A stretch of 63,514 bases of DNA, filler included, from Collodictyon triciliatum (Eukaryota): NCBI GenBank assembly GCA_043381765.1. It is 7 parts of 7 records of this genome, joined end to end, with 100 filler letters (N's around TTAATTAATTAA, not from the genome) between each part and the next. Parts side by side here need not be neighbours in the genome. Positions count along the whole stretch, not along the records: positions 30,377 to 40,397 come from JBHJMP010002820.1; 6 more parts are not named here. The stretch is one strand, 5' to 3'. The first letter of the stretch is position 1. Each line of letters starts with the position of its first letter. Positions 16,668-60,746 of the stretch are shown piece by piece. The notes under the pieces are model-generated. The model ran no database searches and had not been told where the DNA came from. It saw only the letters and a list, made by a program, of their open reading frames with translations. Made by a program: the position numbers and the translations under genes.

Positions 16668-17303
16668 NNNNNNNNNNNNNNNNNNNNNNNNNNNNNNNNN
16701 NNNNNNNNNNNNNNNNNNNNNNNNNNNNNNNNNNNNNNNNNNNNNNNNNNNNNNNNNNNNNNNNNNNNNNNNNNNNNNNNNNNNNNNNNNNNNNNNNNNN
16801 NNNNNNNNNNNNNNNNNNNNNNNNNNNNNNNNNNNNNNNNNNNNNNNNNNNNNNNNNNNNNNNNNNNNNNNNNNNNNNNNNNNNNNNNNNNNNNNNNNNN
16901 NNNNNNNNNNNNNNNNNNNNNNNNNNNNNNNNNNNNNNNNNNNNNNNNNNNNNNNNNNNNNNNNNNNNNNNNNNNNNNNNNNNNNNNNNNNNNNNNNNNN
17001 NNNNNNNNNNNNNNNNNNNNNNNNNNNNNNNNNNNNNNNNNNNNNNNNNNNNNNNNNNNNNNNNNNNNNNNNNNNNNNNNNNNNNNNNNNNNNNNNNNNN
17101 NNNNNNNNNNNNNNNNNNNNNNNNNNNNNNNNNNNNNNNNNNNNNNNNNNNNNNNNNNNNNNNNNNNNNNNNNNNNNNNNNNNNNNNNNNNNNNNNNNNN
17201 NNNNNNNNNNNNNNNNNNNNNNNNNNNNNNNNNNNNNNNNNNNNNNNNNNNNNNNNNNNNNNNNNNNNNNNNNNNNNNNNNNNNNNNNNNNNNNNNNNNN
17301 NNN
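16668..17303. other. Assembly gap
   Basis: Run of N with no linker. Confidence 0.95.
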
Positions 17304-20154: not shown

Positions 20155-20254
20155 NNNNNNNNNNNNNNNNNNNNNNNNNNNNNNNNNNNNNNNNNNNNTT
20201 AATTAATTAANNNNNNNNNNNNNNNNNNNNNNNNNNNNNNNNNNNNNNNNNNNN
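20155..20254. other. Artificial scaffold-joining spacer
   Basis: N44-TTAATTAATTAA-N44. Confidence 0.95.
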
Positions 20255-23632: not shown

Positions 23633-24768
23633 ATACTCTATGCTGCTTATGGACTGCTCCAATCTGGGTATGCATCGCGCTTTGGAACAATTAAAAAACA
23701 CTCGAAAACAAAAATTGACAAGGGCAGCATACTCATGAATAAACAGAAGAATTCAACCACCAAAACCTCTCTTCCTTCTACTTTCGAAAACTACAAGAAT
23801 GGTGTGAATGTATTTGTTCCGGTGTTACTCTGTTAGTTCATGGCCTGTGTTGGGTTGGCATTGTGGGGGATGAGCCCGAATTCCTTGGAGGATGTGGCTT
23901 GCTGCCGACCCAGCGCCCTGCTGTTAGTATTTCCACAATAAGTCATTTCTTGTAGCTCTCTTGGTTAATGTCGTACAAAAAGCTACGAATAGAAATGAAG
24001 GTACATAAATCTATGCATTAGCTACCAGGATCATATGATAAATTAATATACAATATTAAAGGTGCAAATATATTTATATAAGGATCAATGCCTCTCCAAA
24101 CTATAGAAATCGCTTATGTATCATAAATTCCGCAAATGTAAAAGAGCTTTCTGGACATCATGCCCATACGCGGTTAAAATTCAAAAGTTCGAACCTATTC
24201 GGCATTAACCACGCACCAGATTTGCAGACGCGATTTTTCTCGAATACTTGTCGTGTCGCGCAGCGATTGGGCAATGGTGGAAATCCAAAAATGGGGCGTC
24301 ACAACGGCTAGAACGTGTGGCCTCCTTACAGAGACCCTATTGCTTGTATCCTACTTGTAGTATGTGGCTTCAGTCCGATGGAAGCATATATATTTGCTGG
24401 AGTCTGTAATGGTTCCACGCCTCAGGTGTGATAATGAATATAGCTAAACAAGCTGAGAACGCGATCGAAATGCATCGAATAATTCTGCTGCAGCACATCT
24501 CTTAACACCGCGGGCAACCTCGTACCGCCGAGCTCTTGTCGCCACCGCAATTGAATTCTCGCCCAACATGTGCAGTTCACAAGCGAAGTCAATCGATCGC
24601 ACCCGATCACACCTCACACATAGCCCTCCCAGAAACACCAACCTCTCTTCCCAGTTCCCCCAATATCATATCCACAACAAAACAACACAAGAGACTCTTA
24701 CTCACAAACCCCTAATGACCAACGATCCAGAAGCCGATCCCAACAACCTCGATCTCACCACGAGCAAC

Positions 24769-26112
24769 ATGAGCGCCCCTGCCCCAGTCGTCACCCCCGC
24801 CCCCACTCCGATCTACTACGGTGGAGCCACCCGCTCCTTCGCCTACCCCGGCACTTATGCCGCCCCCGTTCCGGTTGTCGCTGCTTCGACCACTGAGACC
24901 ACCACGACCAGCACTGCTGCCCCCATCTTGACCCCCGCCCCCACCCCGATCTACTACGGAGGAGCCACCCGCTCGTTCGCCTACCCCGGCACATATGCCG
25001 CCCCTGTTCCAGTTGCTGCCGCTTCGACCACTGAGACCACCACGACCAGCACTGCTGCCCCCATCGTGACCCCCGCCCCCACCCCGATCTACTACGGTGG
25101 AGCCACCCGCTCGTTCGTCTACCCCGGCACATACGCTGCTCCCGCCCCTGCCCCTGTTGTCGCTGCCACCAGCTCCTCCACAGCAACTAGTGCCCCCGCT
25201 CCCGTTGTGACGCCCGCCCCCACCCCGATCTACTATGGCGGTGCCACCCGCTCGTTCGCCTACCCCGGCACATACGCTGCTCCCGCGCCTGCCCCTGTTG
25301 TCGCTGCCACCAGCTCCTCCACAGCTACCAGCGCCCCCGCCCCCGTTGTGACCCCCGCACCGACTCCGATCTACTACGGCGGCGCCACCCGCTCATTCGT
25401 CCTGCCCTCTGCCACCACCACCGCCACCACGACCAGCACCGCCACCCCCGTTGTGACCCCCGCCCCGACCCCGATCTACTATGGTGGTGCCACCCGCTCC
25501 TACACCCTTCCCGCAGGCGCCCCTGCCCCAGTTGACTACACCTACGCCCCTGTCGGCGCCACCCGCTCCTTCGCTGTGCCCCCGCCCCAGGCCAAGCGCG
25601 AGGTTCTCTTCGAGCTGAACCTTGACCAGTACCAGTTTGAAGAGCCTGCCCCAGCACCGGCCCCGGCACCCGCCCCGGCCCCAGCCCCTGTCGTCCCCCG
25701 CCCTCTGCGCGCAGGCGAACAGCCCTTCACCGGCTCTAACGCTATCTCTTCCTTCCCTATTGCTGGCCATCACTACACCATCACCGTTGTCAGCGCCTCT
25801 GGCCTGCCCAGCCGTATCACCGATCGCACTGACCCCTACGTCAAGGTCACCATCAACGGAAAGACCCTGCAGACCACCTACAAGGAGGACGCCGGCAAGA
25901 ACGCCACGTGGAACGAGACCCTGTCCTTCGGACTCGTCACCGGCAACGTCGGCGTTGGCAAGGTCGAGGTCTTCGACAAGGACGACTTCACCAAGGACGA
26001 CTTCCTCGGCTCCGGCGAGTTCCGCCTGACCAACGGCGATCACACCGTCTCGCTCAAGAACGCCAAGGGCAAGGACACCGGCTCCGTCGTCGTCATTGTC
26101 TCGGTCGCCTAA
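24769..26112 (+). CDS. Intronless Pro/Val/Thr/Tyr tandem-repeat protein with a C-terminal C2 domain
   Basis: Six TPAPTPIYYGGATRS units, a PA linker, then a C2 domain (ITVVSASGL...TDPYVKV...NATWNETLSF...VEVFDKDDFTKDDFLG). Strong bias to C-ending codons. Likely start MSAPAP at 24769. Confidence 0.85.
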   Translation: MSAPAPVVTPAPTPIYYGGATRSFAYPGTYAAPVPVVAASTTETTTTSTAAPILTPAPTPIYYGGATRSFAYPGTYAAPVPVAAASTTETTTTSTAAPIVTPAPTPIYYGGATRSFVYPGTYAAPAPAPVVAATSSSTATSAPAPVVTPAPTPIYYGGATRSFAYPGTYAAPAPAPVVAATSSSTATSAPAPVVTPAPTPIYYGGATRSFVLPSATTTATTTSTATPVVTPAPTPIYYGGATRSYTLPAGAPAPVDYTYAPVGATRSFAVPPPQAKREVLFELNLDQYQFEEPAPAPAPAPAPAPAPVVPRPLRAGEQPFTGSNAISSFPIAGHHYTITVVSASGLPSRITDRTDPYVKVTINGKTLQTTYKEDAGKNATWNETLSFGLVTGNVGVGKVEVFDKDDFTKDDFLGSGEFRLTNGDHTVSLKNAKGKDTGSVVVIVSVA

Positions 26113-26650: not shown

Positions 26651-27026
26651 NNNNNNNNNNNNNNNNNNNNNNNNNNNNNNNNNNNNNNNNNNNNNNNNNN
26701 NNNNNNNNNNNNNNNNNNNNNNNNNNNNNNNNNNNNNNNNNNNNNNNNNNNNNNNNNNNNNNNNNNNNNNNNNNNNNNNNNNNNNNNNNNNNNNNNNNNN
26801 NNNNNNNNNNNNNNNNNNNNNNNNNNNNNNNNNNNNNNNNNNNNNNNNNNNNNNNNNNNNNNNNNNNNNNNNNNNNNNNNNNNNNNNNNNNNNNNNNNNN
26901 NNNNNNNNNNNNNNNNNNNNNNNNNNNNNNNNNNNNNNNNNNNNNNNNNNNNNNNNNNNNNNNNNNNNNNNNNNNNNNNNNNNNNNNNNNNNNNNNNNNN
27001 NNNNNNNNNNNNNNNNNNNNNNNNNN
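26651..27026. other. Assembly gap
   Basis: Run of N with no linker. Confidence 0.95.
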
Positions 27027-30276: not shown

Positions 30277-30376
30277 NNNNNNNNNNNNNNNNNNNNNNNN
30301 NNNNNNNNNNNNNNNNNNNNTTAATTAATTAANNNNNNNNNNNNNNNNNNNNNNNNNNNNNNNNNNNNNNNNNNNN
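30277..30376. other. Artificial scaffold-joining spacer
   Basis: N44-TTAATTAATTAA-N44. Confidence 0.95.
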
Positions 30377-31099
30377 AACAAACAAACAAACAAACAAACA
30401 AACAAACAAACAAACAAACAAACAAACAAACAAACAAACAAACAAACAAACAAACAAACAAACAAACAAAGGAAATATTCGTCGTAGTTCAACCCAGCGA
30501 CTGAGTAAAATGATACGAAATACAAGAAAGACAGGGAGCGTGCGCCATCCCCCTGAGTCGGCTGCTGCTCTGCCCTTGCGGTTGCTTCATCTACTTCGAC
30601 ACCCTGACCCACCCATCGAAACAACGGCACAGGATATTGAGTCGGGTCGCTCAGACATCAACACGTTCTGCCACAAATCATAGAAACCACGCGAAATTAC
30701 ATCAGAAAAAAATCAGCGGCACTTCGATTCCAGAAGTAGATAAAAGTCGTTTGTCATGGTGGTAGAGGAGGCCAAGCGGAATGATGGAGATGTAGCTCGC
30801 ACAAAAAGGTAGTGCTATCTTATATCCAATAGAATTCCTTTTTATATCAAAAGCAGGAAGCTGTTTAACGAGATTAATATGTATCGATTATTAAAAATAT
30901 CAATATTTTTGATTTCTGGATTTTTTTTACCAAAGATTTAAAAGAAATATCAATATCAATATCAATATCAATATCAATATCAATATCAATATCAATATCA
31001 ATATCAATATCAATATCAATATCAGAATCAATATCAATATCAAAATCAGAATCAGAATCAAAATCAAAATCAACACATTTGAAATGACATTCTGATTTA

Positions 31100-33048
31100 T
31101 CACTTCGACGCTTGGGCTTGCTTCTTTTTTTCCAGCTCCTCCAATGCGATTTCCCATTCCGAAGTTGTGAGAACAGGGTCAATAGCATTTGAATGTGCAA
31201 AAGCCTGTTTTGTTGATTATTATTATTATTACAGATGCACATGATTTATTGCACATAATGGAAATGGTTTTGGCGAAACCCAGATGCAAATAATATTTGA
31301 ATAGGTAGGGCCATCACGAGAATTTGTACTTGTGTTCTTTCCAGGCAAGTTCCACACTTGAGACACGGTCTTTCCTTTCCATCGTAGCAACTCCAGGTCA
31401 AATCCAAAGGAGCCTTCAACTTAATCCCTGGAGATATGGAGCAAAGAGAAAAGAAAAGTATCGATATTTGTGTCGATAGTTACATTTTGAGTGCATTAAA
31501 AATGAAGAGCGATACCATAGAATTTCTTCCAAACACTGACGCTTCATATATTTTGTCTGTTTGTTCAATCTGTTAGGGTGCTATAAAAATGTAACCTTCA
31601 GTAATTATTTGGGTCTTTGTCATATGCTGGAATGGAGCGACAAGTGAAACCGGAGTCCATGCGTTGCCACTCTCCAATGCAGCATTCAGCTTTGAAATAA
31701 AATCGGGTCTGCAATCAGGATACACGTTGAAGTCACTCGCGTGAGCCGCATATGCGATGTATCGAGCAGCTGAAGGAAAATGTTTAGTCCTTTATGTAAA
31801 ATGATATTAAAATAATATCCATCCATACAAAAAAAAAAGACGCATCAACCCACTCGTATATATAAATGTGTGGTTGACTCACACAGAGTTACAGCTCGAC
31901 CAGCCGCAATGCTGAGAAATATCATGTTTCTATTGGGTACTACAGTGACTTTCTGAGTCTCTGTTGTATAAACAGCCTACGAATTAATGAGCACATAAGA
32001 ATTACAAAATTTGATGTCATTGTATATTTTTCTCATTTTAATAAAAAAAAATGAAAAAAGATAAAAAGAGAGATAGACAGTTATGAAACTCTACTAACTA
32101 CTTGTCTGGCTGAGAAACAAAATTAAAATATTGTAATAAAACTATGGCTGCCTCTGACCTAAATGGTGGATTAAAAATTACCTTAGGCAGCTCTGCTTCC
32201 CCGGTAAGAGCTCCACTACTTATCAGCCTCCCAATATTGGTCATATCAACAAGGTTATGTTGAATATCTGGAAAGTTAGTCATTCAGTGAATCATTTATT
32301 AAAATTTTTTTTTTAAAAAAAAGGGATCGAAAAGATGGTTTCTTTATGATAAAAAGAGTACACCATGTAAGAAAAGACAAACAAGCAACTTACTTTTTTC
32401 AAAATCTTTGTTAAAGCGTTTCACTACTGCCCGTGCGTTGTCAATCTCCTTTAAGTGGCGTTGTCCATAATTAAAAGACATGGCTTCCACTATATCAAAA
32501 CTATGCAGCAACACGAGGAAAGATTATAAGGCACATATTCTTCATTATGGCGCTCTTATTTTTTGGATGATATTTCGGAATAAATGATCAGAAAGAAAGA
32601 AAATAATATCCCGCTTTGCTGATGTCTAAACCAAGAGATAAGAATTCATTCAAGGTATTATATTCTACCCGTTGTTTTGCAGGTGCCATAGCATAACAGT
32701 GCTGTCTGCACCTCCACTGACGACAGCAACAGCCTGTATTCGATTGGTAGTTAGGTGGAGAATAGGCGATAAGTAGAAAGAAAGAGTAAAAGGGGAAAAA
32801 AGGAAGGGAAAAAAAGGAAAGAGAAGAAAAAAGAAGAAAAAAAGAAGAAAAAAAGAAGAAAAAAAGAAGAAAAAAAGAAGAAAAAAAGAAGAAAAAAAGA
32901 AGAAAAAAAGAAGAAAAGAAGAAGAAAGAAGAAAAGAAATAGGGCTCATAAGATTAAATAAAGAAAATAACTTAACCGGAATGGGCTTGGCTGAAGAGAA
33001 AAAGCGACTGGCGATGTAGCGCGAGAGAGATCGGCCAACAGAAAGCAT
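31100..33048 (-). CDS. queC: 7-cyano-7-deazaguanine (preQ0) synthase, 8 exons, 266 aa, with a mitochondrial-type presequence
   Basis: Exons 33048-32977, 32733-32669, 32500-32394, 32267-32182, 31976-31883, 31769-31596, 31427-31330 and 31204-31100 splice in frame via GT-AG (801 nt). Motifs: SGGADS (PP-loop), [54 protein letters not shown] (Zn site), ER..AF...IDP. Confidence 0.92.
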
Positions 33049-33381
33049 TTTTATCTTCTTTTTTTTTTTTCTTTTTTTTTTCTCCGTATTGAAAGCATAT
33101 GAGTAAGACATAAATCACTTTGAAAAGGTCAGATTTCTCATCCAAATATATTGCCTTAGCAAAAGCAAACACAAAGATGAACACAAACACATACAGAATT
33201 ATGAAAAACTCCACGACATAACGCCACGAGGTCCTCTTTGAAGCCCAGAGGCTTTGCATGAATGGTTCCTCTGCACGTGATCCTGGTCAAAGTCACTCCT
33301 CCATCGCCCCGACTGCTTGTTTCTTATGATAACATCAGATTAGGAGGTAGAAGGAAGAAAAGGAGACACGAGAGAAGCAAT
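33049..33381. promoter_or_regulatory. Probable bidirectional promoter region between queC and the G-patch gene
   Basis: Only 333 bp separate the two divergent ATGs. Confidence 0.5.
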
Positions 33382-35523
33382 ATGAATCCGACTTCGATGG
33401 AAGAATATGCCCGAAGGAAGCGCGACACCGTATGTTTATTAGCTTCGCCGTTGGGCCCAAAACAACTCGATCCTTCGTCCCGCAGAGACTTGTGCTTGAT
33501 AAAAGGAGAACCTCTCTCAGGCAACTGCCCACTGCTGAATATAAGCTTGAGCGTGAGCCAAAACACTCTTATGTCTATAGTACTATACGATGGTTCACAA
33601 ACTGGGGGGCAAGGCCAACGACTCGGAGGAAAATAGTGAGGAAGAAGACTCTGGGCACCTTGAAGACTTTGGCGACGATCGGGCTCTTGAGGCAACCGAA
33701 TTTATGCGCAAGAAAGAAGAGGCGGAAGAGGCGGAACATCAGGAGAAAGAGGCTGAAAGAGCGAGCCTGGATAAAAGTATATCGGAAGAAAACAAAGGGT
33801 ACAAAATGCTGTTGAAAATGGGTTGGAAACAAAACACTGGACTGGGGAAAGAAGGGCTTGGTGTGTTTCTTCCTTCTACTGCCTTTTCCTTTTGATTGCC
33901 ATTTAATTTTTTATATGCCTAAAATATTTGTTCATTTTTTTATTCTCTTTCGGGATTTTCGCTTTCATACATATTATTGTTTCTAATCATGTAGTAACAT
34001 CCTTATTGATTGAACTGACGTTTTTACTTTTATTATTGCTATTGTTATTGTTATTGTTATTGTTATTGTTATTGTTATTGTTATTGTTATTGTTATTGTT
34101 ATTGTTATTGTTATTATAACTCCCATTCTTATTTAGATTGGTTTTTAACGACTTTCTATATCTGTCGTGTGAACACTTAATTGTTTATAAATGTATGTAA
34201 TCCATTGTAGGCATAGCCGAGCCGATTAGAGTAGATACTAAAGTTGACCGTATGGGTCTTGGACGGTTCGAGTATGAGCGAAAGTATGTGGACCCTGAAA
34301 ACATTAAACGGTGCACACTTTTATCGGAACTACCCGAAGACCACGAATTAGTTGTTCAACAATCGGTATATTTACTTATATATATTTTTTTAAAAAAAAG
34401 TTTATTGTGTTAGTTGTTTTTGCAAATAAATAAATATTTGCCCTTCTTCCTTTCTGAATATAATCGCGTTTTTTTAAAAATAAATCATGAATGCTCACGC
34501 ATCTTTTGTTTTTAATACATTCCTCCTTTTATGAATTTTTTCCTACTACTCACGACGCGTGTTCATCATTAGTTGAAAAGAGAGAAAGAGGAAGAGTTGA
34601 AAAAGGTTATTCTGGAAAATACTCGACCTTTTTACTGTGAGTTATGCGACCGGCAATATCGAAATGCGATTGAAATAGGCACGCATCTCTCCTCCCATGA
34701 GCACAACCATAAAAAGGTTCCTTTTGAATTTCATATTGTTAACTACTTTGCTTGCAGCGTAAAAAAAAAAACTGATTGTATTTTGTCCGCCAGAGATTTC
34801 TGGAGATGAAAAATCTGCAAAATCAAAAGAAAACACAAGAAATGAAGAAAAAAGAACAACTGAATGAAGAAAGGGAAATAAAACGACTTAATAAGCTCGC
34901 TAAGGCGTACAAAGAAAAGGAGACTGAGAGAGAAACTGTGACGGAGACGTATTCTTTTATAGCAATAATTTGCTCACTTTCATATTTTATGTATTCTTTC
35001 ATAAAATTTTGAATGTCATAATCAATCATCAGTATGAACATCAATTTAAATGTTATATTATAACAATAAGCACCATTTCGATCAACACCAAATCACACAT
35101 TTTGACCCACATTTACGCGACTTAGCTCAAGTGAACCCTCAGCGCCTCAATCTAATCCTGAAGAGGCTACAAAACCATTGGCTCCTATCAAATTTGCGAT
35201 TGGACTTAAATCAGCTGTAAGTGGGCTTTGATACTATGGCGCACCACATTTTTGCATTTGCAAAATGTGATCCACCAGAAAGACGGAAAAAAACCTATTC
35301 TTTGTTCCTCTATATTATGAAAGGATGTATTTTTTTTATTCTACTTGAGCAATAACAGTCTCAAATAAAATATAGAACTGTTTTCTCTTCCATCCTTTCT
35401 ATCACAATACTTGCTACTTGATTATTTTTTTAGACCCAAGCTACTAGTACAATCAAACCGAAGCAAACGGGAGAATCTGCCAGCAAAAAGCCTAAATTTT
35501 CCTTTGATGATGACGATGAATAG
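33382..35523 (+). CDS. G-patch + C2H2 zinc-finger protein (GPATCH8-like)
   Basis: ISEENKGYKMLLKMGWKQNTGLGKEGL/GIAEPI...MGLG (G-patch) and FYCELCDRQY...HLSSHEHNHKK (zinc finger); multi-exon, ends DDDDE*. Confidence 0.85.
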
Positions 35524-36241
35524 ATAAATCATAAGGAAACATTACGCCTACTCACAAACCATCCGCACATTCACCACATTCGGCTTCATATTCTATACAT
35601 CCCTCATTATATTATCCAAAATTGGTTTATTTATATGGCGGATAGATTTGTAGGAAATGTCTGATTACTTCTGAACTTGTAATTTATTTTTATTTTATTT
35701 TATTTTTTGTAATTAATCACTGCGGTGCGTTTCAGGGTGAACCCTTCTGAGACCTCTCCTGTATGGCGTAGCGCATAGATTTCGCAATGTATTTTGCGTA
35801 TGAATTAAAAAAATCACAGGGATACATATGATGGCAAAACAGCATTATGGTTATCATTTCTTTATAAAAGAAAAAGTGGGAATACCATCTCTGCGGGGCT
35901 GGTGTGGTAAAACTAGAAAGTTTTGCCTCTCCACCACACGCCACCAAAGAACATATTGTATGTATTGTACCATACAAGAATTTACAAATAATTGTACGTT
36001 TAATTAATATATGGAAGGGATTACGCCAATCTATGTATCTTTGCCTTCATCAGATTAAAACACGCCAATCGATTCATAAAATAGAGAATTGATTTAAATT
36101 CCGCATATGGATTTTATCTCTAGTTTAATAGCATCCTGCCGATCCATTACCGAAAACCCCGAAATCTCTTCGCTTCACACTCCCCGCCCGCAAGTTCAGT
36201 CGCCCAGGCCGGCACATCCAACATCACAACACAGAAGCACA

Positions 36242-37096
36242 ATGGTAAGCCTCCCGACGCGACCACCTGACACGCACGACAGAAGACTACACCATTTTTG
36301 GCATCGCTGGCCAGTAATCATAATTGTCTCTGGTGGATTGAAATTCAGATTGTCCGTGTGGTATCGATACCATAACCTGGCAAACCACCCATCACGCCGG
36401 TTGCCCGAAACCTCACCAATCAATGATAACCCAACACTCTTCATAAAATACATAGTTCTTTCAGAGGGCCGTTTAGCTCTCCAATTTTATGATCACGCTT
36501 CCTTCCTCGCGTTGACCTAATCCCACCCCTTCTGCTGCGGCCAAACAGTCCTGGAATTACTTTCACTGTTACCTGTTCACTGATCAGATCTCCCCCTTCA
36601 CGAAAAGGTCAAGCGCACCAAGAAGGTCGGAATCGTCGGAAAGTATGGTACTCGTTATGGTGCCTCCCTCCGTAAGCAAGTCAAAAAGATGGAAGTGACC
36701 CAGCACGCCCGCTACACCTGCCAGTTCTGCGGAAAGGTATCTCTCTCTAGCCCCCACGTCCCAGCACATTGATCCTGAAAGCCCTGCGATGCAGAATACG
36801 GACAATCTCTTAACCGCACATCCACCTCTAGGATGCTGTCCGCCGTGTTGCCGTCGGTATCTGGAAATGCCGCGGCTGCCAGAAGGTCACTGCTGGCGGT
36901 GCCTGGTTGGTCGAGTAAGTCACTCCCACTTATTTTCCTTTTCTCCGTGCGACGGGTGGCTGAATACCTGTTCCCCCATTCGTAGCTCCCCCTTCCTTCA
37001 AATCTTGTAGTAACGGAACCCCTTCCCTGTAGAACCTCCGCCGCCGCCACTGTCCGCAGCACCATCCGCCGCCTCCGCGAATCCCAAGACGTATAA
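36242..37096 (+). CDS. RPL37A: 60S ribosomal protein eL43 (L37a), 4 coding exons
   Basis: ATG|GT, then [43 protein letters not shown] / [25 protein letters not shown] / ...STIRRLRE. Confidence 0.95.
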
Positions 37097-37313
37097 ATCC
37101 GTTGTTGTAGCAACTTCCCCTGAAACCACCATTCCGTCCCATTCGCCTTCGCCACCCACACTTCCCCCGCATAGAACTACCTGAAGTATGACAGGGAAGT
37201 ACCGTAGCTGGCCTGGTCCACGACGCGCTCGTGTCTGTTTTTACTAGACAAACAGTCTACACCACGGCCCTTGGGCTCTGCGTCCCCCTGTCGGTATTTA
37301 TTCGGCTGAAAGC

Positions 37314-40212
37314 CTAGAGACGGGAGCGGAACGCGGCAGGGTTATCAGCGCGGATCATATCTGCGGCCTTCTCAGCGACCATCATGACGGGCGCGTTTGT
37401 GCTTCCGGACGGGACAAAGGGCATGACGCTGCAGTCGGCCACACGGAGGTTCCTGAAGCCCTTGACTCTCAGCCGAGGATCCACAACGCAGGTCGGGTCG
37501 CTTGGGGCGCCCATTTTGCAGGTCCCGACCGGATGGTAGATGGTGACGGCCTTGCTTCGGATCAGATGCTCGATGTATTCCTGCATCATTCACGCGTGCG
37601 TGTGTGCGAGTGGGCAGATTTAGGAACGAGTTTTGTTGTCATTCTCGTGGCTGTATCTGAGTCTGTCAGTCGTGTCTGTGATGGAACGTGAAATGCATGT
37701 CGAGGGTCATTAAGAGGCGCCAATGGGCGGGAGATTACGTCGCTGTCCGGGTTGCTGGCGTATGGGGATGTCTGGTCGATGATTTCGCTTCCTCTGATCT
37801 CGTCCATGGCCGGCTGCTTGATCACCTGCCGCGCCATCTTGACTCCTTGGATCATCACGTCGATGTCTTGGCGGCGCTGGAAGTAGTTTGGCTCGATGAC
37901 GCAGTGCTCAAAAGGAGATGCAGAGCGAAGCGTGATTCTGGGTGTGTGTATGTGATTTTGTGTGTGATTTTGTGTGTGATTTTGTGTGTGATTATGTGTG
38001 TGATTATGTGTGTGATTATGTGCGTGATTTTGTGTGTGATTTTGTCAAGGCAAGAAGTGGGATGAGAGCGCGTACGATCCGACGCTCTTTGGATGAAGAA
38101 GGGCAGTCATGATAGTAAACATGGACTTTGGAAGATTGTCCACATCGGCGTCGATCTCCATGTTTTCTTTGACTTTTGCATTGCCGCCTGCGCTCACAAA
38201 GTGGAATTGAAGGTCGGGCATCTGCAATGGTACAAGGAAGTGCGAGAGGTCGTTACATACGTATTTCATCTAGTAAAGTAATCTTACAGGCAGTGCTGAG
38301 ATGGTTGCACATATATAATAAGAAGAAAAAAATAAAGTGATTTCTACTAGTGTTTCCTTCCTTTTCAGATATATATATTGAGGCAGGGTAAATGAATCGT
38401 GTGTGGAGTAATAAAATGTGTATATGTATGCATAATGTAATAAAATTAAACGGGAAGATATGTAACAAATATATCTACATCTAGATAAGGCTTGGTCTTG
38501 TGGAATATCATGGCTTCTAGAATCTAATGTTTTATGGAATACATAGGATTTCCCGTCAATCAAAATGGAATTAAATCCTATTCCTGACACAACTGATTGG
38601 TTGATTAAGAATACATATTGCTAAAGTCATACCTGCGATGAAAGGGGGCCACGGCCGAATAATGCGTACTGGGTGTTGATACTTCAAATTAGTTTGGAGA
38701 TGAAAAATATATGCAACAGATCTTGAAATTTCTCGAGAGCAAATTAAAAAGTTACATTCATCACCGTAGGCAGCACGTTAGTAGGAGACAAAATGACTTT
38801 CTCATCTAAGCTCACAGGTTTGAGGCACTCATAGGAGACACCCACAAACAAGTGGTCCTGATTATTTAAGGCAAAGTGTTTGCAACAAGCAAGTAAAAGT
38901 TCAGTATCGATAGCGGCAATAAGTAGTTAATGGGACACAATCCTTTATGGATATATAATTATGGTGCACTCTTTTGCCTATAGTTGAAATGAAACAAAAT
39001 TGGATTACAACATTTTGTGTTCATTTTTTAAGTAGGACTTTGATTTTAGAACCTGTAGATTCTTGCCGGTGGGTAAATCGGCGATACATTTGATTCCAAC
39101 ACGACTGAGCTCTTCCTTGGGTCCTACGCCAGAAAGCATCAACAGGTGAGGAGTCCCTATTATTGATAGCCATGTATGTGTTAGAATTAAACTGCCTAGA
39201 GCGTAAATTATGGATATGGAAAAGAAAAGAAGAGGTACTTCTGAGAGAATCAAATATGGGAAGGCTGAATGCTTGAGCTAAAGTTTTAGGAAACACTATA
39301 TACTAAAGACAGACCAATTGCACCGCAACACAGAATTACTTCCCGACGGGCTTTGACAATACTCAGCGGTCCAAACTTTCATAGTTTTTATAAATCAAAC
39401 GAACACATAAAGTCTTGAATGTTGGATACTTGACACAACAGAAAAGAAACGAATGCCTTTTTGTATTACCTCAAGGCCAGGGGGCTTTCCATCTTGCTTA
39501 TTCCATTCTGGCTTACTCCGCAGGAATTCTACACCAGTTGCAACATCGCCATCAAATAAAACTCTTGTTGCCTAGTCAGGGTTGTATTGTCCATTGATAC
39601 TTTGCTATCTCAAGATAATTTACACGCGTTATGTTGTTCAATCTTATGATAGAGACAGAAGTTTGTCCACAGGCTTCAATGGTTGATGCAAATCGAATAA
39701 AAAATATAAATCATTGAAAATTGAGAGGGAAATCGTGGATTGATTGATTGATTTTTTGATTGATTTTTTGCTTTTTTGTCTTTGTTTTCTAAAGAAAAAA
39801 AAGCAAACTTGAGCACATGCAGCGACAGTGAGGTTTTTTCGTCCCATAATAGGGTGGATGAAAGAGTGAGCAGTACTTTGTCTTTGTCCTTTGTGAATGG
39901 ATACCTAGACAGACTAATTATTTCATGCACAGCACTATGAAGAGGATAATCTCGAAAAGAATATTATCCCAAACATGTCTGGAATAAATTACATTGAAAC
40001 ACTCTCTTACAACTATATTGATTAGATTTTATCAAAAAGAAAGTGTATATTATTATTTATTATTATTTGGAACAGGTGTGCGAAAATAAAATCAATATAG
40101 AAATACCATTTAGTTTGAGAATGGGTATTAACGTTTACTAACCTGAGAATAGCAAACACCGTAGATATTGTCACCATTGAAATCAGGGTTAAAAGGGATT
40201 CCGTATTCCCTG
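37314..40212 (-). CDS. GMC oxidoreductase (choline dehydrogenase-like), 5'-truncated, ending in -SRL
   Basis: ARREVILCCGAI/GTPHLLMLSGVGP, GKNLQ/DHL, PDLQFHF, LLHPKSVG, YHPVGTCKMG, VVDPRLRVKGFRNLRVADCSVMP, STNAPVMMVAEKAADMI. Confidence 0.9.
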
Positions 40213-40268
40213 AGATTTTTTTTTGGAGTGATAAAGACTTTCTTCAGAGGATGTTTTTCTTTCCAAAA

Positions 40269-40299
<31 letters not shown>

Positions 40300-40397
40300 A
40301 CGGAGAGAAAACATGAATGGAGTGAAAAAATTTCACACAATTCAAGGTTATTGTAATCGATTTTTTTTTCTAATAATACGGCCATTTCACGCTACGT

Positions 40398-40497
40398 NNN
40401 NNNNNNNNNNNNNNNNNNNNNNNNNNNNNNNNNNNNNNNNNTTAATTAATTAANNNNNNNNNNNNNNNNNNNNNNNNNNNNNNNNNNNNNNNNNNNN
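40398..40497. other. Artificial scaffold-joining spacer
   Basis: N44-TTAATTAATTAA-N44. Confidence 0.95.
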
Positions 40498-50518: not shown

Positions 50519-50618
50519 NNNNNNNNNNNNNNNNNNNNNNNNNNNNNNNNNNNNNNNNNNNNTTAATTAATTAANNNNNNNNNNNNNNNNNNNNNNNNNN
50601 NNNNNNNNNNNNNNNNNN
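50519..50618. other. Artificial scaffold-joining spacer
   Basis: N44-TTAATTAATTAA-N44. Confidence 0.95.
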
Positions 50619-60646: not shown

Positions 60647-60746
60647 NNNNNNNNNNNNNNNNNNNNNNNNNNNNNNNNNNNNNNNNNNNNTTAATTAATT
60701 AANNNNNNNNNNNNNNNNNNNNNNNNNNNNNNNNNNNNNNNNNNNN
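60647..60746. other. Artificial scaffold-joining spacer
   Basis: N44-TTAATTAATTAA-N44. Confidence 0.95.

Follow-up and report, generated by a model that had tools for sequence, protein, structure and literature searches.

An archaeal-type QueC encoded by an intron-bearing nuclear gene of Collodictyon triciliatum, with a candidate mitochondrial leader on its own exon

Background

QueC yields preQ0 (7-cyano-7-deazaguanine), a precursor from which the tRNA base queuosine (Q) is built. QueC by itself is insufficient for the production of preQ0 from GTP; the pathway includes FolE, QueD and QueE. According to an excerpt of a review (PMC5699537), eukaryotes make no Q de novo and obtain queuine from bacteria or from the diet, and a title cited there places the eukaryotic transglycosylase in mitochondria. 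No report of a eukaryotic QueC has been found in our literature search.

A second group of described systems concerns the leader peptides that direct proteins to mitochondria. The gain of presequences by means of added 5' exons is known for genes transferred from organelle to nucleus and for some horizontally acquired genes. In the available part of one source (PMC7723863), the presequences that MPP, the mitochondrial processing peptidase, cleaves are described as N-terminal, 20-60 residues long, rich in Arg, with few or no acidic residues, an Arg at position -2 or -3 and an amphiphilic helix.

In the current analysis we describe a queC gene in a stretch of 63,514 nucleotides of Collodictyon triciliatum (GCA_043381765.1), referred to here as the window. 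The encoded protein is similar to archaeal and bacterial QueC (PF06508, TIGR00364; structures 3bl5 and 2pg3) in its domain, PP-loop, four-cysteine zinc site and mature length. Unlike the prokaryotic genes, it is nuclear, has seven spliceosomal introns and no queD or queE neighbour, and its start lies 24 residues upstream (43 in Diphylleia rotans), in the window gene on a separate exon. The leader is like the R-3 class of presequences processed by MPP and Icp55 in being N-terminal, 24 residues long and acid-free, with an Arg at -3 and an aromatic residue at -1; it departs from that class in a helical amphiphilicity that does not clearly exceed chance and in the Lys that the orthologue has for the Arg, and its site is a predicted one. 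It also resembles the presequences carried by added 5' exons, with an exon of its own and a phase-0 intron at the boundary between leader and ancestral protein. The gene differs from organelle-to-nucleus transfers in being of archaeal type, and no copy of exon 1 was found elsewhere in the window. With eukaryotic queuine salvage (QTRT1/QTRT2 and DUF2419-type proteins) it shares the product family, 7-deazaguanines in tRNA. Salvage needs no QueC, and a QueC gene therefore points to synthesis and not to salvage.

The reading that we favour, at slightly better than even chances, is that of a nuclear, intron-bearing preQ0 synthase QueC, acquired from an archaeal-type source before the split from Diphylleia and provided with a leader exon that would act as a cleavable matrix-targeting signal.

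Results and discussion

Gene structure

The predicted gene consists of 8 exons on the minus strand, with a coding length of 801 nt (266 aa) in which all the QueC motifs are present (Table 1). The initial annotation is silent on the strand. It had described exon 1 as encoding 24 residues without acids, rich in Arg and Ser and containing RFFSS, which the minus-strand translation of 32977-33048 matches exactly. All seven introns are of the GT-AG type, 113-243 nt in length, and have a GC content of 0.26-0.33 as against 0.36-0.54 in the exons.

Table 1. Features of the queC locus in the window, with the evidence for each assignment. P0002 is the orthologue from Diphylleia rotans.
Feature	Position	Strand	Content	Evidence
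Exon 1	32977..33048	-	ATG and 24-codon leader, 72 nt; GC 0.54	Translation, composition, motifs
Intron 1	32734..32976	-	Phase 0, 243 nt, GT..AG; mostly 11-nt tandem repeat, pyrimidine-rich on the sense strand	
Exon 2	32669..32733	-	First strand and PP-loop; 21 aa	Too short for Pfam scoring alone
Exon 3	32394..32500	-	Contains YGQRH	Pfam QueC E = 8.6e-5
Exon 4	32182..32267	-		Gene model; alignment to P0002
Exon 5	31883..31976	-	Contains VVPNRN	Pfam QueC E = 1.2e-4
Exon 6	31596..31769	-	YAAHASD..YPDCRP	Pfam QueC E = 4.6e-13; TIGR00364 E = 1.3e-11; 82% identity to P0002
Exon 7	31330..31427	-	Four-cysteine zinc site	Pfam QueC E = 4.1e-7
Exon 8	31100..31204	-	C-terminal helix and TGA stop	Gene model; alignment to P0002
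Divergent intergenic region	33049..33589	.	541 nt, common to the QueC gene and the G-patch/zinc-finger gene; A10 and A12 runs	

Identity and ancestry of the enzyme

The family and fold tests were run on single exons of the window and on P0002, a Diphylleia rotans transcript in EukProt that is identical to the window protein at 199 of 242 positions (82%) of the mature part and that provides the only expression evidence for this QueC. Four of the five exon pieces searched match QueC of Pfam. P0002 scores 181.9 bits on the NCBIfam QueC equivalog model TIGR00364 (cut-off 150.3) over profile positions 1-201, and single exons of the window reach 44.5 and 28.6 bits on the same model. The PP-loop motif SGGADS of exon 2 is identical in P0002 and falls in nearly invariant columns of our QueC alignment, in which all 32 sequences share the four zinc-site cysteines of exon 7. 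The AlphaFold model of P0002 has a mean pLDDT of 86, and its best match in Foldseek is the QueC of B. subtilis, 3bl5 (target-normalised TM 0.81-0.82, E = 3e-12).

DpdC, Cap9, QatC and phage QueC have the same fold, and Cap9 (9nto_B) ranks fourth among the structural matches to the P0002 model. In another search Cap9 has an E-value of 2.8e-9, compared to about 2e-22 for QueC structures. The model of QatC gives 18.4 bits where 280 are required. It is the model of the true QueC equivalog that the orthologue fits, and PADLOC reports nothing beyond its generic QueC model, which matches the protein in part. A defence or DNA-modification paralogue of the QatC, Cap9 or DpdC type was rejected, as the best match is not to a paralogue-specific model. 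The nearest clusters in the protein atlas are those of bacterial and phage QueC, a proximity that reflects embedding similarity and not phylogeny, and no eukaryotic QueC cluster appeared in the atlas. The presence of phage QueC among several of these nearest clusters is recorded as a lead only.

In the tree, the window protein and P0002 nest among archaeal QueCs. The nearest relatives are 55-60% identical, the named ones being from Heimdallarchaeota/Kariarchaeaceae, Methanobacteriota and Archaeoglobi, and the clade of the two eukaryotic proteins takes in four of the five Heimdall-group sequences that are named. These results support the view that the predicted enzyme is an intact and genuine QueC of archaeal-type prokaryotic ancestry in a eukaryotic nuclear context, and the protein would be expected to convert 7-carboxy-7-deazaguanine (CDG) to preQ0. 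An unlikely and still bolder variant of the mitochondrial-pathway reading taken up in the conclusion would, given this share of the Heimdall-group sequences, make the gene a relic of vertical descent from the Asgard-related host of eukaryogenesis.

Integrity of the locus

We consider it very unlikely that exon 1 lies outside the gene, the locus being a pseudogene, a contaminant or an assembly chimera, or another first exon being used. The window is a chain of pieces of about 10 kb joined by artificial linkers, and non-consensus donors would allow an ATG at 33259 to be joined in phase 0, both of which speak for such a view. Against it, a single uninterrupted piece (30377-40397) contains exon 1, intron 1 and exon 2, and the frame of 801 nt is unbroken and shares 82% identity with an expressed ORF of Diphylleia that also bears a leader. 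The PP-loop would moreover be untranslatable without an upstream start: there is no Met ahead of it in the exon 2 stretch, which is identical to P0002. Prokaryotic contamination is excluded because of the seven introns and the neighbouring G-patch/zinc-finger gene, which is itself intron-bearing and starts with an ATG at 33590 on the plus strand.

Intron 1 and the choice of start codon

Intron 1 has the donor G|GTTAAG and the acceptor ACAG|GCT, its phase following from the length of exon 1. AG dinucleotides occur in it at positions 4, 30 and 241 only, and a tract of some 210 nt, 96% pyrimidine, precedes the acceptor, no AG coming between the two. Its GC content is 0.27 and that of the 5' flank 0.28, against 0.54 for exon 1. 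No in-frame stop is present in the intron. Read-through was considered and rejected, for all three frames are open and this openness is a matter of composition; the (CTT/T)n repeat opens every frame, so that the open frame across the intron has no evidential weight.

The start of exon 1 at 33048 has the context ataaaaATGC, with A at -3. The ATGs upstream in the intergenic region include one out of frame at 33098, whose uORF stops 2 nt ahead of the main ATG, and one in frame at 33111. Initiation at the latter would lengthen the protein by 21 residues, among them one Glu and a run of poly-Lys, and would give a 45-residue leader beginning MSYSYAFNTEKKKRKKKKKIK, whose poly-basic run may be a nuclear or nucleolar signal or part of a longer mitochondrial presequence. 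The stretch is in frame and stop-free up to 33048, and we nevertheless regard this start as quite unlikely. Its context is weak, with T at -3 in place of the A found at 33048; the Lys run is encoded by the A10 and A12 runs of a stretch of 28% GC that resembles a promoter or 5' UTR; and the Diphylleia protein has no poly-Lys run of this kind. Long poly-A tracts stall ribosomes.

Position of the leader with respect to prokaryotic QueC

The distance from the start to SGGxDS has been compared among 124 proteins. It is 3-16 residues in 105 of them (mostly 6-7) and at least 18 in 16, the latter including the two eukaryotic proteins (29 in the window gene and 48 in P0002), and the motif was not found in the remaining 3. 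The initial annotation had placed a phase-0 intron between the leader exon and the point at which prokaryotic QueC begins, and the offsets bear this out, as does exon 2, which opens at the first strand followed by the PP-loop. By our reading of the protein list, Asp or Glu occurs in the pre-motif stretch of each of the 14 other relatives in which this stretch is long. Among 106 other CPSase hits, acid-free N-termini with a net charge of at least +4 are found in only two, both eukaryotic (snail and Corallochytrium). The first 24 residues of prokaryotic QueC proved uninformative as a negative set (1 of 119 acid-free), and the comparison is restricted to pre-motif stretches because the Asp of SGGxDS falls within those 24 residues.

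Composition of the leader and chance expectation

The 24 residues of exon 1 include 3 Arg, 1 Lys and 6 Ser and no Asp or Glu, giving a net charge of +4. RFFSS occupies residues 15-19, with a predicted MPP/Icp55 site of the R-3 class at R15-F16-F17|S18, and residues 8-12 follow a hydrophobic-x-x-hydrophobic-hydrophobic pattern. The earlier claim that such composition and an R-2/R-3 motif typify MPP-cleaved presequences agrees with the rule as given in the part of PMC7723863 cited above: the leader conforms to it in position, length, Arg richness and lack of acids, and in the Arg of R15-F16-F17|S18-S19. Its amphipathicity is modest. The maximal hydrophobic moment of 0.715 in an 11-residue window is reached by 9% of 5000 shuffles, and the value in an 18-residue window by 24%.

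The whole window has 762 ATG-initiated open stretches of 24 codons on the two strands. Absence of acids is common among them (190); 45 combine it with at least three Arg and a sum of Arg and Lys of at least four, and 3, exon 1 counted, have in addition the motif R-x-[FYL]-[SA]. No other of them attains the hydrophobic moment of exon 1 as well. The test is indicative only, because the thresholds were chosen after exon 1 had been seen.

A leader for another compartment, the plastid or the secretory pathway, appears extremely unlikely. Plastid transit peptides are likewise rich in Ser/Thr and poor in acids, and P0002 begins with Met-Phe, features that would suit such a destination. Twenty-four residues are short for a transit peptide, and a hydrophobic core is absent from exon 1: within the first 30 residues of the model, hydrophobicity over 8 residues is highest in the first strand of QueC. 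Plastid targeting is unlikely. Collodictyonids are not known to have a plastid. As far as the available portions of the sources go, Diphyllatea are described as heterotrophic (PMC11603278), and the mitochondrial genome of the lineage as gene-rich, with 62.6 kb and 27 tRNA genes (PMC4779616); a title cited in the latter names tubular cristae.

The leader in Diphylleia

P0002 has an N-terminal extension of 43 residues at the same position as the leader of exon 1. Its first 38 residues are acid-free, and in the AlphaFold model they have a pLDDT of 44-52 and no secondary structure, thus no helix. The two leaders align weakly (local score 25, reached by 4.4% of 2000 shuffles). The position of R15 is occupied by Lys, P0002 yielded no R-3 motif, and its first 24 residues have a net charge of only +2. 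The extension is fast-evolving and, in the model, lies outside the fold. In both proteins the initial Met is the only one ahead of the PP-loop.

These features bear on a possible though unlikely alternative, in which the leader is real but a non-targeting by-product of integration. The nearest usable ATG and splice donor would have been recruited in the bidirectional promoter region, and QueC would be cytosolic, feeding preQ0 or a derivative of it to cytosolic tRNA modification or another pathway. The frequency of acid-free starts in the window and the non-significant amphipathicity are in keeping with this, and so are the lack of conservation of the R-3 arginine in Diphylleia and the failure of the window searches to find partner enzymes with leaders. 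It accounts less well for a long extension kept in both species, both of which have lost the Met near the domain start, and for a presequence-type composition that is kept while the leader sequences diverge. The R-3 site is moreover a textbook one, at which a cut would leave an N-terminus of QueC length.

That exon 1 is a targeting-type exon joined to a prokaryote-derived enzyme is well supported. The proposal of the initial annotation that such an exon was added gains from the archaeal-type QueC and from the leader having an exon to itself. The predicted import into mitochondria is weakened by the modest amphipathicity, by the Lys that Diphylleia has in place of the motif Arg and by the upstream in-frame ATG at 33111.

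Proposed route of the enzyme to mitochondria

In the targeting reading that we favour, the gene would have come from a lineage of archaeal type, at a time when this collodictyonid-type protist (CRuMs) and Diphylleia rotans had not yet diverged. The original start codon would have been lost, and translation would begin on the added 72-nt first exon, whose acid-free Ser/Arg-rich product, with its net charge of +4, may serve as a presequence that targets the matrix and is cleaved off. The precursor is predicted to be imported into mitochondria, through recognition by TOM and passage through TIM23. The putative cleavage site would place the MPP cut after F16, with R15 at -2, after which Icp55 would remove F17. 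The mature enzyme would then begin at S18, seven residues ahead of the first strand and with an N-terminus of about the length of that of prokaryotic QueC, and in the matrix this zinc- and ATP-dependent enzyme would convert 7-carboxy-7-deazaguanine to preQ0.

Search for pathway partners and comparators

Pfam detects no QueD, QueE, QueF or TGT among those ORFs of the window that reach 78 aa, 145 in number. Prokaryotic queC loci, 80 in all (the best 80 of at least 600 stretches from a contig scan), supplied 2742 ORFs for a tblastn search of the window, which likewise gave no queD, queE, queF or tgt, 235 of the 236 HSPs being QueC itself. Neither queD nor queE is present at four annotated archaeal queC loci. 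On the favoured reading, the remainder of the preQ0 pathway would be present in the organism.

Two genes of the window were considered as comparators and rejected. The L14 gene (41553-42176), taken as a mitochondrial comparator, is by sequence the cytosolic uL14, and the GMC oxidoreductase gene on the minus strand (37314-40391) is split by an artificial linker, past which its N-terminus was not found.

Conclusion

The occurrence of an intact and conserved QueC in two members of a deep-branching group of eukaryotes, expressed to judge from the Diphylleia transcript, questions the generality of the rule that eukaryotes do not synthesise Q. The locus also offers a clean case of the domestication of a transferred prokaryotic gene, with introns gained, the start codon lost and a leader exon placed at the old N-terminus. 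If the leader does send QueC to mitochondria, this would point to an organelle-specific 7-deazaguanine chemistry acting on mitochondrial tRNA or mtDNA; preQ0 synthesis in the mitochondrion for either of these is speculation. A bolder and rather unlikely extension is that collodictyonids run the de novo 7-deazaguanine pathway in their mitochondria with a transferred archaeal-type QueC, the product modifying the bacterial-type tRNAs of the organelle (Q34 or an archaeosine-like base) or its DNA. Were this true, they would be the first eukaryotes known to make preQ0 and not to salvage queuine.

Gene structure and family assignment

The gene for QueC, the 7-cyano-7-deazaguanine (preQ0) synthase, was built by coordinates as a model of eight exons, 801 nt and 266 residues. 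The seven introns measure 113-243 nt, each with GT-AG ends, and the GC content is 0.36-0.54 in the exons and 0.26-0.33 in the introns. Minus-strand translation from 33048 to 32977 returns the same 24 residues (the leader) that the initial annotation had quoted for exon 1, and the composition described there also holds, the leader containing by count three Arg, one Lys, six Ser, no acidic residue, and R-x-aromatic then Ser at residues 15-19. Exon 1 is distinguished by a GC content of 0.54; the values are 0.28 for the sequence upstream and 0.27 for intron 1. This intron of 243 nt is largely an 11-nt tandem repeat, is 96% pyrimidine over its positions 41-225 and contains only three AG dinucleotides, the last being the acceptor. 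It has no in-frame stop, which is no argument for read-through, since the repeat is stop-free in each of the three frames. An (AATATC)x21 microsatellite (30946-31073) lies in the presumed 3' UTR, beginning about 30 nt past the stop codon.

Table. Coordinates of features in the window
Feature	Position	Strand	Remarks
QueC exon 1	33048-32977	minus	24 residues by translation; donor G/GTTAAG
QueC exon 2	32733-32669	minus	acceptor ACAG/GCT; opens with the first strand and PP-loop
QueC exon 3	32500-32394	minus	gene model
QueC exon 4	32267-32182	minus	gene model
QueC exon 5	31976-31883	minus	gene model
QueC exon 6	31769-31596	minus	gene model; query that found P0002
QueC exon 7	31427-31330	minus	gene model
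QueC exon 8	31204-31100	minus	gene model
G-patch and C2H2 (jaz-type) zinc-finger gene	33590-~34800	plus	intron-bearing
GMC oxidoreductase gene	37314-40391	minus	GC-rich stretch, 0.53 over 36-38 kb
Carbamoyl-phosphate synthase gene	394-2505	minus	orthologue P0125
551-aa open frame with C2 domain	24457-26109	plus	overlaps 59% GC interval
Linkers N44-TTAATTAATTAA-N44	10031-10130, 20155-20254, 30277-30376, 40398-40497, 50519-50618, 60647-60746		stops in all six frames
N runs	16668-17303, 26651-27026		resemble ordinary gaps

Pfam QueC matches are present in four of five exon pieces scored singly, the remaining piece being exon 2 (21 aa), which is below scorable length. The search with exon 6 identified P0002, a transcript-derived protein of 287 residues assigned to Diphylleia rotans in EukProt, which shares an identity of 82% (199/242) with the mature part of the window QueC. 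On the NCBIfam QueC equivalog, P0002 reaches 181.9 bits (cut-off 150.3) with the whole profile covered, and its AlphaFold model (mean pLDDT 86) is closest to B. subtilis QueC, 3bl5 (target-normalised TM 0.81-0.82). Both proteins have an intact PP-loop and all four zinc cysteines, and defence-type QueC-like models fit much more poorly than QueC. The family searches scored the exons singly, and the probable assignment of the window gene to QueC rests on the exon-wise matches and on its identity to P0002, which passes these tests.

Origin of the enzyme

The QueC tree comprises 136 rows and was obtained by a quick search, with SH-aLRT as the sole support measure. The window QueC and P0002 form a pair on a long stem (SH-aLRT 99), nested in a clade of 51 rows (support 98) that includes one Methanobacteriota MAG along with all but one of the five named Heimdall/Kariarchaeaceae sequences. 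Archaeoglobi QueCs form the adjoining clade and bacterial QueCs are distant; the sister group of the pair is not settled by this tree. The enzyme had been called prokaryote-derived, correctly, as the pair is nested with archaeal sequences, and it is, more precisely, of archaeal type. Contamination as its source is ruled out by the seven introns and by the intron-bearing G-patch/zinc-finger gene lying head to head with it. Phage QueC serves DNA modification, and a viral route of transfer may be considered. Phage (Uroviricota) QueC proteins predominate in several of the embedding clusters closest to P0002 in the protein atlas; such cluster taxa carry a warning and are not evidence of transfer.

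The leader as a putative mitochondrial presequence

Residues 8-12 of the leader follow a hydrophobic-x-x-hydrophobic-hydrophobic pattern, and its features agree with the matrix-presequence list and the R-3 rule (Arg at -3 of the mature N-terminus, processed by MPP plus Icp55) in section 7 of PMC7723863. Cleavage at the predicted R-3 site would leave seven residues ahead of the first strand; the PP-loop offset in prokaryotic QueC is most often 6-7, about the same N-terminal length. Among the 762 ATG-initiated open 24-codon stretches of the window, 45 match the leader in charge and composition, three also carry an R-3-type motif and exon 1 alone attains its own hydrophobic moment as well, at thresholds chosen post hoc. 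Against the presequence reading, 190 of the 762 starts, a quarter, lack acidic residues in the AT-rich DNA of the window. The hydrophobic moment is matched by 9% of shuffles in an 11-residue window and by 24% in an 18-residue window; amphipathicity is not clearly above chance.

P0002 has at the same position an extension of 43 residues, acid-free up to residue 38 and unstructured, with low confidence, in AlphaFold. The extension resembles exon 1 only weakly (local score 25, reached by 4.4% of shuffles); diverged leaders beside a highly identical mature part are a pattern typical of targeting peptides. The other relatives with long predicted N-termini (14 of 14) have acidic residues there. On the other side, the position of the motif Arg is Lys in P0002, the net charge of its first 24 residues is only +2, and an R-3 motif sought in it was not found. 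Neither protein has a Met between the first Met and the PP-loop, and therefore the leader must be translated for a functional enzyme.

A further point against the reading is an in-frame ATG at 33111, from which the N-terminus could be longer by 21 residues. These would include poly-Lys, and their coding stretch, of 28% GC, contains the runs A10 and A12; the start context of this ATG has T at -3 (weak) vs A at -3 for the ATG at 33048. A second upstream ATG, out of frame at 33098, counts on the same side; it starts a short reading frame, again with Met-Leu-Ser, that ends 2 nt ahead of the main ATG and, if transcribed, might act as a regulatory uORF.

Targeting to a plastid is unlikely, because collodictyonids are not known to have one. 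Diphyllatea are described as heterotrophic (PMC11603278), and PMC4779616 gives the Diphylleia mitochondrial genome as 62.6 kb with 27 tRNA genes and cites a title that mentions tubular cristae.

Neighbouring genes

With linkers recurring every ~10.1 kb, the window consists of joined ~10.02-kb pieces whose linkage to one another is not assured, the GMC oxidoreductase gene being cut at 40398 with no continuation beyond. The stretch surely contiguous with QueC is 30377-40397 only. The ATGs of QueC and the G-patch/zinc-finger gene are 541 nt apart, which suggests a common bidirectional promoter. A (TTATTG)x14 microsatellite (34033-34115) lies inside an intron of the latter gene. The GMC oxidoreductase gene, which includes a His/Thr/Asn-rich repeat, may be a further gene of bacterial ancestry; its C-terminal domain shares 51% identity over 78 aa with a Roseovarius ORF. 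The interval 24001-26000 has 59% GC, its surroundings ~37%.

The carbamoyl-phosphate synthase (CPSase) gene matches Diphylleia rotans best (79%), all other matches being at most 44%. The window therefore derives from a relative of Diphylleia, a collodictyonid within CRuMs. About 370 residues with no Pfam match precede its ATP-grasp domains. The precomputed domains of P0125, the Diphylleia orthologue (2162 aa), are CPSase and aspartate/ornithine carbamoyltransferase; glutamine amidotransferase and dihydroorotase are absent from that list. The architecture is CAD-like and unusual.

Implications for preQ0 synthesis

The substrate of QueC is 7-carboxy-7-deazaguanine, the product of QueD and QueE. 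No other que gene was found in the window, either in a Pfam scan of 145 ORFs (78 aa or longer) or by tblastn, in which 2742 ORFs taken from 80 prokaryotic queC loci served as queries and gave 236 HSPs, 235 on QueC and one on the GMC oxidoreductase gene. No report of a eukaryotic QueC was found in the papers searched, and a review (PMC5699537) states that eukaryotes salvage queuine and lack de novo Q synthesis.

The initial annotation proposed that a targeting exon had been added to a prokaryote-derived enzyme. The joining of a leader exon to such a QueC is well supported; mitochondrial targeting is the best single reading of the leader, to which we give only slightly better than an even chance. 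A role of preQ0 in mitochondrial tRNA or DNA would follow only speculatively.
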